The notes under the pieces: model-generated
Databases searched by the model: none
What the model was told of the DNA's origin: nothing
The model's input: only the letters and a program-made list of their open reading frames with translations
Position numbers and translations under genes: made by a program
Shown here: positions 11,447 through 27,533 of the stretch, piece after piece
Layout of the letters: each line of letters begins with the position of its first letter
How positions within the stretch are numbered: the first letter of the stretch is position 1
NCBI GenBank assembly: GCA_965223325.1
Contig: CBDCWI010000001.1
Coordinates: 352,001 to 416,000 of the forward strand
DNA from: Candidatus Multivoradales bacterium
Lineage (GTDB): Bacteria; Acidobacteriota; Thermoanaerobaculia; Multivoradales; Multivoraceae
Reading direction: 5' to 3'
DNA: 64,000 nucleotides

Positions 11447-11542
11447 GAGAATCGGCGAGACCGGATCCCGGGGGTGCGCTGGAGGTGGCGTAGGATCACT
11501 CTCCCTCCCTCCCTTCTCTCGACCTTCGTTCAGGAGACCTCG

Positions 11543-12940
11543 GTGGCCAACTCCGCCTCACCCACGTCGCGCTACGACTACGACCTGATCTGCATTGGTG
11601 CCGGTTCGGGAGGTGTGCGCGCATCGCGCTTCGCCGCCTCCTACGGCGCGCGCGTTGCCGTCATCGAAGACGGTCCGCTCGGTGGTACGTGCGTCAACGT
11701 GGGATGCGTTCCCAAGAAGCTCTTCTACTACGCCTCGCGGTTGCATCACGACGCAGGTCTTCTACCCGATTTCGGGTGGGAGGCTTCGCAACCTGCCTTC
11801 GACTGGTCACGGCTGATCCAGAACAAGAACCAGGAAATCGCCCGCCTCAACGGGATCTATCGACGCATTCTCGCGGGCGCAGGGGTCGAGATCATTCTCG
11901 GCCGCGGACATATCGAAGGCCCGAACACCGTCAGCGTCGGCGAAACGACGCTCAGCGCACGCTACATCCTGGTGGCCGTCGGCGGGCGGCCCTGGATGCC
12001 AGACTTTCCAGGAAGCGAGCAGGCGATCGTCTCCGACGCGGCGTTCTATCTCGAAGAGATGCCGGAACGTGCCCTGGTCGTTGGCGGCGGCTACATTGGG
12101 GTCGAGTTTGCCGGGATCTGGAACGGGCTCGGAGCCCAGGTCACTCAGGTCTACCGCGGTGAAATGTTTCTTCGTGGCTTCGATGGCGACGTGAGATCGG
12201 CCCTCGCTCTAGAGATGCAGAACAAGGGCATCGACCTGCGCTTTCACACCGAGGTCACGGCAATCGTCCGCCAGGCCGACGGCTCGCTCCGCGCAACGCT
12301 CAGTTCAAAGGATCGCGACGACGAAGAACTCGACGTCGATCTCGTGCTCTACGCCACCGGTCGCGTCCCGCGCACCGACGACCTGGGGCTCGAAAACACC
12401 GCCGTCCGGGTGGGTGCGCGCGGCTTCATTGAAGTCGACGACCAGCTTTGTACCGCGGAGCCCAGCATCTACGCCATCGGCGACTGCATCGAGCGGCCAT
12501 TCGATCTCACTCCAGTTGCCCTCCACGAAGGCATGGCTGTTGCCGCGACCCTCTTTGATGATCGCCCGACCAGTCCCGAGTACGACAGCATCGCCACCGC
12601 CGTCTTCAGCCAACCACCGATCGGTACCGTGGGTCTGACAGAAGAAGAGGCACGCGAGCGCTTCGGTGCCGACAACATCGAGATCTATCGCAGTCGCTAC
12701 CGCGCCTTGAAGCTGACCTTGGGCGACGATCCCGAGCGCTCGCTGATGAAACTCGTCGTCGACCGCGGGAGTCGTCGCGTTCTAGGAGTGCACGTTCTCG
12801 ACTCCGACGCCGCTGAGATCGTGCAGGGCTTCGCCGTCGCCGTAAAGATGGGGGCCACCAAAGAACAACTCGACGCCACGATCGGCATTCATCCAACATC
12901 GGCGGAAGAGCTCGTGACCCTACGCGACCCGGTCAGCTGA
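11543..12940 (+). CDS. gor: Glutathione-disulfide reductase
   Basis: GAGSGG, GGTCVNVGCVPKK, GGGYIGVE, HPTSAEE; GTG start after AGGAG. Confidence 0.93.
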   Translation: MANSASPTSRYDYDLICIGAGSGGVRASRFAASYGARVAVIEDGPLGGTCVNVGCVPKKLFYYASRLHHDAGLLPDFGWEASQPAFDWSRLIQNKNQEIARLNGIYRRILAGAGVEIILGRGHIEGPNTVSVGETTLSARYILVAVGGRPWMPDFPGSEQAIVSDAAFYLEEMPERALVVGGGYIGVEFAGIWNGLGAQVTQVYRGEMFLRGFDGDVRSALALEMQNKGIDLRFHTEVTAIVRQADGSLRATLSSKDRDDEELDVDLVLYATGRVPRTDDLGLENTAVRVGARGFIEVDDQLCTAEPSIYAIGDCIERPFDLTPVALHEGMAVAATLFDDRPTSPEYDSIATAVFSQPPIGTVGLTEEEARERFGADNIEIYRSRYRALKLTLGDDPERSLMKLVVDRGSRRVLGVHVLDSDAAEIVQGFAVAVKMGATKEQLDATIGIHPTSAEELVTLRDPVS

Positions 12941-13083: not shown

Positions 13084-15036
13084 ATGAACCGTTCTCCGCT
13101 GATCGTCCTCGGACTTCTTTTCCTCGCCGTCGCTCTATCGGGTGTTTCGGCCGATGACTCGCCGGATCCCTCGAGCTGGACCAGCTATGGCGGCGACACC
13201 TGGAGTACGAAGTACTCTCCGCTCGACCAGATCGATGCGACCAACGTCAAGAAGCTCGAGATCGCCTGGCGTTGGGGCTCGCCAGAAAACGACCTTGTCG
13301 CCAAGGACCCCAAGTACCGCCCAGGGCTTTACGAAGCCACGCCCTTGTTCATCGACGGCGTTCTTTACACGGCGACGTCCCACAGCGGCATCGCGGCGAT
13401 CGACCCAGGGACCGGCAAAACGCTCTGGCATTTCGACTCCCTGAGCCAGGAAGGCGGCAGGCCTCCCAACCTCGGCTTCATCCATCGCGGGGTCTCTTAC
13501 TGGAGTGACGGTGAGGCGACGCGAATCTTCATTGGTACGGGCGACTCGCGATTGATCGCCGTCGATCACGTAACCGGTGAACCGATCGGCGAGTTCGGCA
13601 ACCAGGGAAGCGTGGACTTGAGCAAAGGCTTGCGGCGCCCAATCCCAAGGCGCTACTACGGCTTGAACTCCCCGCCGCTGGTTTGCGGCGATGTCGTGGT
13701 GACCGGTGCGACAATCGCCGACCTCGCCATCAGTCGCAACGCGCCCCCGGGCGATGTGCGGGGCTTCGATGTGCGCACGGGCGAACACCTGTGGACTTTC
13801 CACTCCATTCCGCAGGCCGGCGAGTTCGGCAACGAAACCTGGAAGAACGAGTCGTGGAAGGGCACCGGCAACACCAACGTCTGGAGCCTCATGAGCTGCG
13901 ACGAGGAGCTCGGCTACGTGTACCTCCCGTTCGGAACGCCAACCAGCGACTACTACGGAGGAGAACGTCACGGCGACAACCTCTTCGCCGAGAGCCTGGT
14001 CGCTCTGGACGTTGAAACCGGAGAACGCATCTGGCATTTCCAGGCCGTGCATCACGGAATCTGGGACTACGACTTTCCATGCGCGCCCAACCTCGTCGAC
14101 ATCACGGTCGACGGCGAGAGGATCAAGGCAGTCGCACAGGCGAGCAAGCAGGGGTTCATCTACGTCTTCGATCGCGTCACCGGCGAGCCGGTTTGGCCCA
14201 TCGAAGAGCGCAAAGTCCCTGCGTCTTCGGTTCCGGGCGAGAAGCTGTCGCCAACCCAGCCCTTCCCGACCCGCCCGGCACCTTTCGAACGCCAAGGAGT
14301 GAGGCCCGAAGACCTGATCGACTTCACGCCCGAGTTGGCTGCCGAGGCGCGCAAGATCCTCGCCGAGTTCGACTACGGTGAGCTCTTCGTTCCTCTCGGC
14401 ACAGGGCGACCGACGATGTACCTGCCTGGATGGCTCGGTGGTGCCAACTGGACGGGAGCCGCCGTCGATCCCGAGACCGGTGTTCTCTATGTGCCGTCGA
14501 TCACCAGCCCGATCGCCTTCACATTGACCGAAACCGACTCGAACCGCTCCGCGTTCCGCTATACCGCCACTCCTACTCCGGTTATCGGACCTGACGGCCT
14601 GCCGCTGTTCAAACCGCCTTACGGGCGGATCACCGCGATCGACCTCAACAGCGGCGAGCACCTTTGGATGTCACCGCTTGGCGACGGTCCGCGTGATCAT
14701 CCACGACTGGCCCATCTCGACCTTGGACCGCTGGGCGCTCCACAGCGGGGTGCGCCGCTCGTCACGAAGACTCTCCTGTTCGTGACCCAGGAAGGGACCA
14801 TCGGTGAGATCCGCTTCAGCGAAGACCTGCACGCGGCAGAAGCCGAGACCTTCACATCCGACCCAGGGCTGCGGGTGTTCGACAAGCAGAACGGAAACCT
14901 GTTGACCGAGATCGAACTACCGGCCAACGCGATCGCAGCGCCCATGACCTACCTCCACGAAGGCAAGCAGTACATCGCGGTGTCGATCGGCGGTGGCAGT
15001 CAGCACTCCGAGCTGGTTGCCCTGGCGCTACCTTGA
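13084..15036 (+). CDS. Secreted PQQ-dependent dehydrogenase (glucose/quinate family, no membrane domain)
   Basis: Signal peptide; YSPLDQI, RGVSYW, HHGIWDYD, SPTQPFP, GGANW, KPPYG, PMTY..GKQYI. Confidence 0.9.
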   Translation: MNRSPLIVLGLLFLAVALSGVSADDSPDPSSWTSYGGDTWSTKYSPLDQIDATNVKKLEIAWRWGSPENDLVAKDPKYRPGLYEATPLFIDGVLYTATSHSGIAAIDPGTGKTLWHFDSLSQEGGRPPNLGFIHRGVSYWSDGEATRIFIGTGDSRLIAVDHVTGEPIGEFGNQGSVDLSKGLRRPIPRRYYGLNSPPLVCGDVVVTGATIADLAISRNAPPGDVRGFDVRTGEHLWTFHSIPQAGEFGNETWKNESWKGTGNTNVWSLMSCDEELGYVYLPFGTPTSDYYGGERHGDNLFAESLVALDVETGERIWHFQAVHHGIWDYDFPCAPNLVDITVDGERIKAVAQASKQGFIYVFDRVTGEPVWPIEERKVPASSVPGEKLSPTQPFPTRPAPFERQGVRPEDLIDFTPELAAEARKILAEFDYGELFVPLGTGRPTMYLPGWLGGANWTGAAVDPETGVLYVPSITSPIAFTLTETDSNRSAFRYTATPTPVIGPDGLPLFKPPYGRITAIDLNSGEHLWMSPLGDGPRDHPRLAHLDLGPLGAPQRGAPLVTKTLLFVTQEGTIGEIRFSEDLHAAEAETFTSDPGLRVFDKQNGNLLTEIELPANAIAAPMTYLHEGKQYIAVSIGGGSQHSELVALALP

Positions 15037-18144: not shown

Positions 18145-18726
18145 ATGCCGTTCATCCAGATCACCCCACCCGACGAAGCCACCGGCCTGCTCGCCCGCCT
18201 CTACAAGGCAGCCATCGACCGCGCCGGGCGCGTGTTCAACGTGCTGCAGCTCCAGAGTCCAAGGCCCCATGTTCTGCAGGCATCAACGCGGCTCTATACC
18301 GAGGTCATGCACTCCCCGAGGAGTCCCCTGAGTCGGGCACAACGCGAAATGATCGCGGTCGTCGTCTCACGCGCCAACGACTGCCACTACTGAACGCGTG
18401 CCCACGGCGACGACCTCCGGGCTGAGGTCGAGGACACCCAAGCGGCGAGCGCCCTGACCGCCGCGGTAATGACCGACTACCGCCAGGCGCGACTCAGCGC
18501 TCCCGACCGCGCGATGCTCGACTTCGCGGTCGAGCTGACGCGGCAACCTGCCGCCATCACCGAAGCGGCGATCGCCGAGCTGCGGGAGGCCGGCTGGAGC
18601 GACACGGCGATTCACGACATCGTCCAGGTCACCGCGCTCTTCAACTACTACAACCGCCTCGCCGACGGCCTGGGAATCGACCCGGAGCCCGATTGGGACG
18701 AAAGCCCCGCGGCCCTGAAGAGCTAG
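18145..18726 (+). CDS. AhpD/carboxymuconolactone-decarboxylase-like peroxidase, predicted selenoprotein (Sec at TGA 18391-18393), 193 aa
   Basis: ORFs 18145-18393 and 18469-18726 share one frame with no other stop; read-through gives REMIAVVVSRANDCHY-U-TRAHG...LREAGWSDTAIHDIVQVTALFNYYNRLADGLG, a complete AhpD-like protein. Confidence 0.85.
18394..18440 (+). promoter_or_regulatory. Putative bacterial SECIS element
   Basis: CGACCTC (18411-17), loop CGGGCT, GAGGTCG (18424-30); lower stem GTGCCC/GGACAC; loop starts about 24 nt after UGA with G at loop position 2. Confidence 0.65.
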
Positions 18727-18875
18727 AATCAGGGAGCGACGAGCCGGTCCTCTCCCTCCCCCGGTTCGACCAGGACCCCTATATCCCTTCCACCTCACGA
18801 CGGGACGGGGAAGCGACGGGCTTCGTATGCACTCACGAGGCGAATCCACGCCTCGCGCTCGGAGCTCAGTCCCCC

Positions 18876-20498
18876 TTGCCAACCTCACCGTCCCAACCAA
18901 CCCAGGCCCGGCCAACCCAGCCCCGCCCGGCACGCCCTCGACCCGGAAGGCCCGGTGCCCATCGCCGCAACTTGATCATCGCCGCGGTGGTTTCCTTCTG
19001 GATGTTGACCACTGGCCTCCTGGTCTTTCGTGAGCGTAGCCAGTCGACCCGCTTCCTGCCCACTTCGCGCGCCGTTCTGCTCGAGTCGACCGAGAGTTGG
19101 CTCGGCCTGTTCGCCGATGACCAGCCGGTCGGCTACGTGCACATGCAACAGATACCGGAAGTGCGCCACGGCGTAGACGGCCGCACGCTGATTCTCAACG
19201 TCGACCTACAGCTCGACCTCTTCGGCCGCGACGCTGCCCTGCAGCTGAACGGCGACGCCTGGAACGCCCTCCTACCCGCCGAAGTGAGGGCGCGGTCAAA
19301 CCGCGGCGCGCCAGAAGATCGCATCCCGACCGCCGAGCTGGGCTTCTCGGTACGTTCTGGACCCTACGACTTTTCCTTCGACGGCGAAGTCGACGACGGG
19401 CTGCTCACAGCCGAGATCCGCAACGCCGGCGAGGTGCTGCCGCTCGAAGTGCCGATCAGCGACGATGTGCTGGTCTCGGCCGGCCTCGGTGGCGCGACAT
19501 CGCTGCCGGTCCTCAACGTCGGTGAACAGGTCACCATTCAGAGCTTCGATCCGGTGACGTTGCGCGCTTCTGACACCGAGGTCCGGTGCGTCGCGCGCGA
19601 AGTCATCGAGGTCGACGGCGTGACCCATCGCAGCCGGGTCCTGGAAGTCGAGTCGCTGGGCTTGACGACCAAGGCGTGGATCGACGACTCCGGCCAGGTG
19701 CTCAAAGCCAGAACGCCGATTGGCCTCGAACTGCGCCGCATCTCAGCCGATCAGCTCGCACAGACCCGCTTCGGTGGCGATGCCGGTGCCCTGCTCGGGC
19801 TGAGCGCCATCCACCCCACCGGTGTGACCCCCAACCGAGGCGTCACGCACATGCAGTTCCGGGTTACCGCCGGTCCTTCTGACCTGCCGATTTCGCCCCT
19901 CCAGTTCGAGACCGGCGGCCTGTGGACACGCACGACCAACTCCGAGCCTTCCTCCCCCGAGCGCGGGGCTCCCCACCCAGCCCAGCCAGCTGGCCAGGAA
20001 ACTCCCGAGCTCTGGCTGGCCGCCGACGCCTTTGTCCAGTCCGACCATCCGCGCATGCAGGAGCAATCGCGCGCGATCGTTGACGGCCTCAGTGACCCGA
20101 AGGCCCGTGCCCTGGCGATTCACGACTGGGTCTTCGAAGAGATCGCCAAGGAACCCGCCCTGGGAATCCCCTCGGCCCTCGAGATTCTCGAACACCGGCG
20201 CGGTGACTGCAACGAACACACGGTGCTCTACGCCGCCCTCGCACGAGCTGCCGGCCTGCCAACGCGCATCGCCATCGGCGTCGTGTGGAGCGAAGACCTC
20301 GGCGGCTTCTACTACCACGCCTGGCCCGAAGTCTGGTTCGAAGACCGGGGCGGCTGGTCATGGATCGACCCCACACTCGGTCAGCCGTCGGCTGACGCGA
20401 CCCACATCAAACTCCTGGACGGCGGCATCGAAACCTGGCCGCGACTTCTGCCCTGGCTAGGGCAGCTGGAACTCGACATCGAGGACGTCGCCCCATGA
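18876..20498 (+). CDS. Membrane-anchored transglutaminase-like (Cys-His-Asp) protein
   Basis: GDCNEH, YYHAWPEVW and WIDPT triad motifs; N-terminal TM; start uncertain (TTG 18876 after GGAG; frame open from 18693). Confidence 0.85.
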   Translation: MPTSPSQPTQARPTQPRPARPRPGRPGAHRRNLIIAAVVSFWMLTTGLLVFRERSQSTRFLPTSRAVLLESTESWLGLFADDQPVGYVHMQQIPEVRHGVDGRTLILNVDLQLDLFGRDAALQLNGDAWNALLPAEVRARSNRGAPEDRIPTAELGFSVRSGPYDFSFDGEVDDGLLTAEIRNAGEVLPLEVPISDDVLVSAGLGGATSLPVLNVGEQVTIQSFDPVTLRASDTEVRCVAREVIEVDGVTHRSRVLEVESLGLTTKAWIDDSGQVLKARTPIGLELRRISADQLAQTRFGGDAGALLGLSAIHPTGVTPNRGVTHMQFRVTAGPSDLPISPLQFETGGLWTRTTNSEPSSPERGAPHPAQPAGQETPELWLAADAFVQSDHPRMQEQSRAIVDGLSDPKARALAIHDWVFEEIAKEPALGIPSALEILEHRRGDCNEHTVLYAALARAAGLPTRIAIGVVWSEDLGGFYYHAWPEVWFEDRGGWSWIDPTLGQPSADATHIKLLDGGIETWPRLLPWLGQLELDIEDVAP

Positions 20499-26570: not shown

Positions 26571-27533
26571 TCAGCCATGGAACGCGCAGTCGTCGCACTG
26601 CGACTCGCCGTCTTCGATCTGCAGGGTCACGTGGTCGAGCTCGAAACTCTCGCGTAGGAGCTGGACGAGGACTGGCAGGAGCGACTGACCGCGACCCTCT
26701 TCAGCCACCACGTGCGCCATCAATGCTTCGCGCCCCGAGCCAATCGTCCAAGCGTGAAGATCATGAATCGACAACACACCATCGACCGCCGCCAGTCGAT
26801 GCTCGATGTCGACCAGATCGAGGCGTGATGGCGCTGACTCGAGCAGCACCTCGACGGTATCGCGCAAGAGCGCCAACGACGAGAACAGAACTAGGCTGCC
26901 GATGATCGCCGACGCCAACGGGTCCGCCCAGTAGAGCTTCCAGCCGTAGATCAGAGCTGCCGATGCAATCGCTCCAACGCTCCCGAGAGTGTCGGCCAGC
27001 ATGTGCAGCCAGGCCCCTCGCACGTTGAGACTGTGTTGTTGGCCACCATGGAGAACTACGACCCCAATCAGGTTGACGACCAAGCCACCGATCGCAACCA
27101 ACAGCATCGGCCCGCCCAGAACCTCAGGGGGATTCTGGAAACGTTCCCAGGCCTCTTTGAAGATGAAAATCGCAATGACGATCAGGGTGACCGCGTTGAT
27201 CAACGCTCCCAGCACTTCGGCGCGATGAAGACCGAACGTCCGCAACGGAGTCGGCGGCTGGCGACCAATCCAGATCGCAATGAGTGCAATCGACAGTGCC
27301 GCGACGTCCGAGAACATGTGACTCGCATCTGCCAACAGCGCGAGCGAACCGGTGACCAAACCGCCAATGACCTCGGCGAAGGCGTAGGCGAGCACCAGAA
27401 CGAGAACGAAGGCTAGCTTGCGGGCGTTGCCAAGGCTTGTGTGTTCACCGAGACGAGCGTGGGAATGACCGTGATGATGGCCGTGATGGCCGTGATGGTG
27501 GTGACCGTGGTCCGGTGCTTGGGAAACGTGCAT
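26571..27533 (-). CDS. czcD: Cation diffusion facilitator (CzcD/ZitB-like) Zn/Co/Cd exporter
   Basis: His-rich N-terminus, SLALLADASHMFSD, AWLHMLADTLGS, HDLHAW, HVTLQIE. Confidence 0.88.
   Translation of the reverse strand: MHVSQAPDHGHHHHGHHGHHHGHSHARLGEHTSLGNARKLAFVLVLVLAYAFAEVIGGLVTGSLALLADASHMFSDVAALSIALIAIWIGRQPPTPLRTFGLHRAEVLGALINAVTLIVIAIFIFKEAWERFQNPPEVLGGPMLLVAIGGLVVNLIGVVVLHGGQQHSLNVRGAWLHMLADTLGSVGAIASAALIYGWKLYWADPLASAIIGSLVLFSSLALLRDTVEVLLESAPSRLDLVDIEHRLAAVDGVLSIHDLHAWTIGSGREALMAHVVAEEGRGQSLLPVLVQLLRESFELDHVTLQIEDGESQCDDCAFHG

Follow-up and report, generated by a model that had tools for sequence, protein, structure and literature searches.

Organization of the locus

The DNA analyzed here, referred to throughout as the window, is a stretch of 64,000 nucleotides from the genome of a Candidatus Multivoradales bacterium. 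The list of open reading frames (ORFs) and their translation place a single 193-codon frame at 18145-18726 on the forward strand, the sole interruption of which is a TGA codon at 18391-18393. Standard ORF calling divides this frame into two pieces, an 82-aa ORF at 18145-18393 that takes the TGA as its stop, and a second of 85 aa at 18469-18726 that shares its frame. A first-pass annotation of this DNA had described the pair in just these terms, as one frame broken only by TGA that standard annotation would report as fragments. The 75 nt separating the two ORFs (18394-18468) comprise 25 stop-free codons, also as described. When the TGA is translated as selenocysteine (Sec, U) the product is 193 residues long with a single recoded position, U83, within the sequence ...REMIAVVVSRANDCHYUTRAHGDD..., and this agrees with the earlier placement of the UGA at the second Cys of a CxxC-type motif. 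Orthologs begin with MAWI..., and these starts align with the N-terminal MPFIQITPP. A consensus scan for promoters and terminators between 17900 and 19200 returned no sites of either kind. The features of the locus are as follows.

18145..18726, + strand: predicted AhpD-like selenoprotein gene (TIGR01926, CMD superfamily), coding region complete; 193 codons, one of them for Sec, with a TAG stop at 18724-18726.
18391..18393, + strand: in-frame TGA, the predicted selenocysteine U83 and second redox residue of C80-H-Y-U83; the column is TGA at 29 of 30 aligned loci and TGT (Cys) at one.
18346..18405, + strand: predicted active-site segment E68-x11-C80-x-Y82-U83-x3-H87, from the translated sequence and the relay residues given in PMC3141380.
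18411..18430, + strand: putative SECIS hairpin with a 7-bp stem and a 6-nt apical loop, CGGGCU, from its folding (-11.3 kcal/mol) and the pairing in 14 orthologs.
18969..20498 (start approximate), + strand: transglutaminase-like gene, the downstream neighbor (Transglut_core, 78.5 bits), with the same adjacency at 5 of the 13 close ortholog loci.

Conservation of the TGA codon among relatives

A six-frame protein search was carried out on 41 genomes, comprising that of the window and 40 relatives. Matches are present in 27 of these genomes, and 41 of the 45 matches contain an in-frame TGA. The best 30 of the 45 matching loci, drawn from 26 relatives and the genome itself, were translated in the matching frame and aligned, and all 30 were kept. 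The U83 column is TGA in 29 of them and TGT (Cys) in the other one (L042, from genome G008), and the codon is flanked by conserved blocks, REMIAxxVS..N.C.YU upstream and NY.NR.ADGLG downstream. The aligned homologs extend down to ~32-40% identity with no further stops or frameshifts, and the C-terminal half is conserved without decay. The first-pass annotation had predicted either Cys or TGA at this column among homologs, and these are the two states seen, with Cys present in the solved structures 3c1l and 6k40 as well. It had also named relatives with a Cys codon together with a decayed 3' half as a reason to abandon its reading, and the alignment presents the opposite picture. A second paralog in the same genome has 185 codons, is 39% identical, and carries CHYU at residue 83. 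This paralog is located at L051:1486-2040 (+), equivalent to G000:C2 ~4030785-4031339, and is flanked by genes for a Na+/H+ exchanger and an SNF2-type helicase.

These comparisons bear on two readings in which the UGA is not decoded at all. In one, the gene is a pseudogene in which a Cys codon (TGC or TGT) has become TGA, a step needing one transition or transversion, such that the gene is dead or gives only the 82-residue N-terminal fragment. The two fragments obtained by standard ORF calling could be taken in this way, as could the finding that a large protein collection contains no full-length relative more than 53% identical; related genomes nonetheless hold orthologs that are 56-71% identical, and where gene callers split Sec genes, databases should be short of close full-length proteins, which is consistent with what is seen here. 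The shared TGA of the aligned homologs, with conserved sequence downstream of it, argues strongly against a pseudogene, as do the conserved and covarying hairpin after the TGA and the full Sec machinery of the genome (both described below). We consider this reading exceedingly improbable, and TGA at 29 of the 30 loci effectively refutes it.

In the other reading, TGA is an assembly or sequencing error and the true codon is TGC or TGT, for which nothing specific speaks and the chance appears vanishingly small. In three public runs, contigs spanning the codon show no differences (X1 and X2 over the whole stretch, and record 18 of X4 over 18229-18521), although they are not independent confirmation of the TGA because they may be the source data of the assembly. 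Reads showing TGC or TGT had been named as evidence that would overturn the Sec assignment; the public assemblies holding the stretch, with the same reservation as to source, read TGA. The independent argument is the presence of TGA at the same column in 26 other genomes, and it is on this basis that a sequencing error is rejected. Together, the same-column TGA, the conserved flanks and the CHYU paralog rule out a nonsense mutation of recent origin as well as an error of sequencing.

Beyond these close relatives, an even sample of the phylum (121 genomes) includes 36 genomes with a match, and 49 of the 58 matches have an in-frame TGA, counted irrespective of column. By this count, Sec forms are more frequent than Cys forms in the phylum sample.

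Two further observations concern incomplete matches. Genome G108 has a homolog in two overlapping pieces (G108:C5:26937-27254 and 27242-27469, corresponding to query residues 2-112 and 114-189), which may reflect a frameshift or misassembly of this copy. Other contigs of runs X1, X2, X4 and X5 match only the segment REMIA...C.YU (18334-18394) and diverge right after the TGA, with ends reading ...TGCCATTACTGA..., from which it appears that further organisms in these samples carry Sec forms of the AhpD-like family.

A candidate SECIS element

The TGA is followed by a hairpin in which CGACCTC (18411-18417) pairs with GAGGTCG (18424-18430) around the loop CGGGCT (18418-18423). Counting from the UGA, 17 nt precede the stem and 24 nt the apical loop. 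The hairpin itself, a 7-bp stem with a G-containing 6-nt loop, had been recognized previously and is as described, but the distance of about 24 nt then assigned to it is that of the loop, the stem being closer. The criteria for bacterial SECIS (bSECIS) elements listed in a 2026 review (PMC13188914) are a loop of 3-9 nt, an upper stem of 4-16 bp, a G within the first two loop positions, 16-37 nt between UGA and loop, and a minimum free energy of -7.5 kcal/mol or lower. The hairpin falls within all four of these published limits on size, sequence and spacing (6-nt loop, 7 bp, G at loop position 2 followed by another G, and 24 nt) and also within that on energy, at -11.3 kcal/mol.

Folded alone, the hairpin has a z-score of -2.1, and 7 of 200 shuffles fold as well as it does. 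The UGA-proximal context of 50-63 nt does not fold better than shuffles (z = +0.27 and +0.42), which is expected in DNA of 64% GC. As folding energy is thus uninformative in context, the support for the hairpin rests on the comparison between genomes, for which we used the alignment of the 14 closest orthologs, which is free of gaps (50-71% identity at the protein level). The hairpin is kept in all 14, with 98.0% of pair cells paired, versus 18-45% after sliding of the 3' partner. Compensatory changes, altering both sides, occur at two pairs: at pair 24-37, two sequences have U-A for C-G, and at pair 21-40, two have G-C for C-G. None of 500 shuffles reaches the covariation score, and the number of pairs altered on both sides is attained in 49 of 500 (a figure recorded elsewhere as 49 of 500 falling short); because the compared genomes are kin, these shuffle figures overstate the significance.

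Because much of the stem falls within the conserved codons D-D-L-R-A-E-V, coding accounts for some of its conservation. All 14 orthologs use CTC for the Leu within the stem, and the remaining third positions of the stem are nearly fixed; third positions in the spacer between UGA and stem (alignment columns 6, 9, 12 and 18) vary. A scan of the whole 64-kb window against Rfam at gathering thresholds gave no matches. With its agreement with the published bSECIS limits and its covariation in the 14 orthologs, the structure earlier called SECIS-like stands as a good candidate.

More distant subgroups (L035-L050) have different hairpins within the 60 nt after the Sec-UGA, which begin ~8-15 nt from it; among them are GGAGC-GGGG-GCUCC, CCGGCGC-GGGCU-GCGCCGG and ACGCAGA-GUU-UCUGCGU. 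The SECIS thus appears to differ between paralog groups.

Selenocysteine machinery and genetic code of the host

The genome is 6.69 Mb in length with 64% GC, is assembled in two contigs with a two-replicon organization, and is 98.2% complete. Profile searches identify selA (449.1 bits), selB (296.9 bits, or 327.4 with its C-terminal piece) and selD (222.8 bits), all over their cut-offs. There is one tRNA-Sec, scoring 71.9 bits against a gathering score of 47, which ARAGORN also reports as tRNA-SeC with anticodon tca. The prediction that an organism with this gene should have Sec machinery is therefore borne out for all four components.

By analogy with the established bacterial Sec pathway, SelD would make selenophosphate, SelA would convert Ser-tRNA(Sec) to Sec-tRNA(Sec), and SelB would bind the mRNA hairpin at 18411-18430 and deliver Sec-tRNA(Sec) to the UGA at 18391-18393.

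The sole selD of the genome encodes a 767-aa fusion, with a pyridine-nucleotide-disulfide oxidoreductase domain (residues 11-312) followed by the SelD AIRS/AIRS_C domains (462-754), at L010:295-2598 (+), equivalent to G000:C1 ~1387876-1390179. Fusions of this 'Ndh-SelD' type are mentioned in the GOS selenoproteome paper (PMC2398784).

The distribution of selA is broad; it is found in 40 of the 41 genomes (the genome itself and its 40 relatives), including 14 without an AhpD-like match, so its co-distribution with the family cannot separate the groups. In genome G009, which is 90% complete and in 240 contigs, homologs containing TGA are present and a selA match was not found.

Low-level read-through of UGA exists in bacteria, and decoding need not in principle involve Sec: the codon could be read by near-cognate insertion of Trp or Cys, or TGA could have been reassigned (codes 4 or 25). 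Reassignment is rejected, as TGA terminates 1711 of the 2944 open frames of at least 400 codons, where it is the commonest stop codon and thus not a general sense codon in this genome. Against non-Sec read-through more generally are the position of the codon at a redox Cys with Cys-containing homologs, the bSECIS-type hairpin that follows it, and the retention of selA, selB, selD and tRNA-Sec. General read-through is the one point that favors such decoding, and we regard decoding other than as Sec as highly improbable at this codon.

Protein family and active site

The joined protein matches the NCBIfam model TIGR01926 ('peroxidase-related enzyme') with 155.8 bits against a cut-off of 81.8, residues 5-183 aligning with profile positions 4-178 of 178 and crossing the TGA. 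It also matches Pfam CMD (PF02627) with 51.1 bits against a gathering score of 23 (E = 1.4e-13), a sequence match that indicates fold and superfamily only and implies no decarboxylase activity. From these two matches the joined frame appears as a full-length AhpD-like/CMD protein, as had been supposed. Five solved structures match with E-values from 2e-27 to 2e-20 (3c1l, 6k40, 2pfx, 2oyo and 2prr), and since all five are TIGR01926-type structures matching at E <= 2e-20 they fix the fold. Two of these, Mlr4105 (3c1l, E = 2.1e-27) and DR1765 of D. radiodurans (6k40, E = 4.2e-27), align over nearly their full length and share the same helix, N-x-C-x-Y-C-x-x-x-H-G; they carry Cys where the window protein has U83, and identity is only moderate.

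Comparison with M. tuberculosis AhpD, the AhpC-reducing adaptor (TIGR00777), shows both common and distinct features. The proton relay described for that protein consists of Glu118/Cys130/His132/Cys133/His137, with PA0269 having Tyr at the His132 site (PMC3141380). Both proteins belong to the CMD/AhpD superfamily, and the residues E68, C80, U83 and H87 have the spacing E-x11-C-x-x-U-x3-H, equivalent to the Glu-x11-Cys-x-x-Cys-x3-His of AhpD. Unlike AhpD, the window protein has a Tyr (Tyr82) at the relay His position and Sec in place of the second relay Cys, has no ahpC among the seven ORFs scanned around it, and scores only 20.1 bits against the TIGR00777 cut-off of 191.95, which places it outside that family. 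It likewise lies outside NF041238 (AhpD_rel_CFYUT), a different family, with 72.1 bits against a cut-off of 175 and alignment to only the C-terminal part of the 357-position model, although a CxxU in an AhpD/CMD-type domain is shared with NF041238, NF041047 and PF02627 'CMD-like', as far as their descriptions go. There is weak homology across the whole protein to the N-terminal domain of Sestrin (PF04636; 5dj4; E = 2e-4 to 4e-4, and 20.8 bits against the Pfam cut-off of 29.4), which is eukaryotic, much larger, and not a selenoprotein.

By analogy with M. tuberculosis AhpD and DR1765, U83 would be the nucleophile of a C80-x-x-U83 redox pair, activated by a relay of E68, Y82 and H87. The pair would be expected to cycle between the selenol/thiol and selenenylsulfide states, and may reduce a peroxiredoxin-type partner or a hydroperoxide directly.

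As judged from the sequence, 18145-18726 is very probably a single functional gene encoding an AhpD-like thiol/selenol oxidoreductase of ~21 kDa, in which the UGA at 18391-18393 is recoded as Sec. The first-pass annotation had gone further in proposing an active Sec-dependent thiol peroxidase/reductase. The Sec gene is upheld; the peroxidase activity was overstated, being a prediction. DR1765 is the best functional analogue found, and its deletion increases sensitivity to H2O2, with complementation requiring the CxxC cysteines, according to a review (PMC8945050).

A real selenoprotein with a role other than in peroxide metabolism is a lesser possibility, but an appreciable one; the protein could have another thiol-selenol redox function, such as reduction of a specific protein disulfide or detoxification of an electrophile or metalloid. 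The cautious NCBI name for TIGR01926, which says only 'peroxidase-related enzyme', leaves room for this, and the distant match to true AhpD, the lack of a neighboring ahpC, and a partly conserved adjacency to a transglutaminase-like gene (see below) point in the same direction. Pointing toward a peroxide-linked role are the complete AhpD relay spacing and the reported contribution of the homolog DR1765 to H2O2 tolerance in a CxxC-dependent manner (PMC8945050).

Neighboring genes

The gene upstream, separated by a gap of 30 nt, encodes a duplicated MacB/FtsX-type permease, which is matched in only one of 29 homolog loci (L040). Downstream, the transglutaminase-like ORF is listed at 18693-20498 (+), with a TTG start that overlaps the end of the selenoprotein gene; the start given above, ~18969, is approximate because homology to relatives begins near residue 93. 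The adjacency of these two genes is seen at five of the 13 close ortholog loci (L023, L024, L028, L030 and L031). ABC transporter genes and a hybrid histidine kinase gene follow. No AhpC/Prx domain is present in the seven ORFs scanned between 11474 and 24770. Neither the genes around the window copy nor those around the paralog include a convincing functional partner.

Located 5-7 kb upstream of the selenoprotein gene, at 11474-12940 (+) and 13084-15036 (+), are genes for a pyridine-nucleotide-disulfide oxidoreductase with a dimerisation domain (lipoamide/glutathione-reductase type) and a PQQ-dependent dehydrogenase.

We have also considered that the selenoprotein could be a dedicated redox partner of the transglutaminase-like protein, a membrane-anchored protein with a Cys-protease fold, for example by keeping its catalytic Cys reduced. 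If so, the two would form a small conserved module and the selenoprotein would not be a free-standing peroxide-defense enzyme. The one line of evidence for this is the adjacency at five of 13 loci, which shared ancestry explains equally well, and we think such a partnership rather improbable.

Relationship to known selenoproteins

The 'AhpD-like protein' (COG2128, CxxU) was described as a new selenoprotein family from 27 Sargasso Sea sequences, with a figure of its predicted bSECIS (PMC1088965). In the GOS survey 'AhpD-like 1' ranks fourth among families by number, represented by 299 selenoproteins alongside 902 Cys homologs (PMC2398784); 'AhpD-like protein, TIGR01926, CxxU' is among the entries of the 2026 review (PMC13188914), and the AhpD-like family is the browsing example of BSepDB (PMC13326102). 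With this family (COG2128/TIGR01926), as these sources present it, the window protein has in common the NCBIfam model, a CxxU with Sec in the second position, a bSECIS right after the UGA, and widespread Cys homologs. There is no difference of kind. The present example comes from a two-replicon genome of 64% GC, and in its phylum sample the Sec form is the predominant one (49 of 58, by the in-frame TGA count), whereas Cys homologs outnumber Sec forms 902 to 299 in the GOS data reported in PMC2398784.

The gene in the window adds an ordinary member to a well-known family of selenoproteins and opens no new question, as publications since 2005 have covered this family together with its CxxU motif and SECIS. 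Its main value is one of annotation, in that a gene call split into 82-aa and 85-aa fragments is corrected. For the organism, it reflects a lineage that invests in selenium, with selA in all but one of the 41 genomes, at least two AhpD-like Sec paralogs in this genome, and the Sec form of the family predominant.
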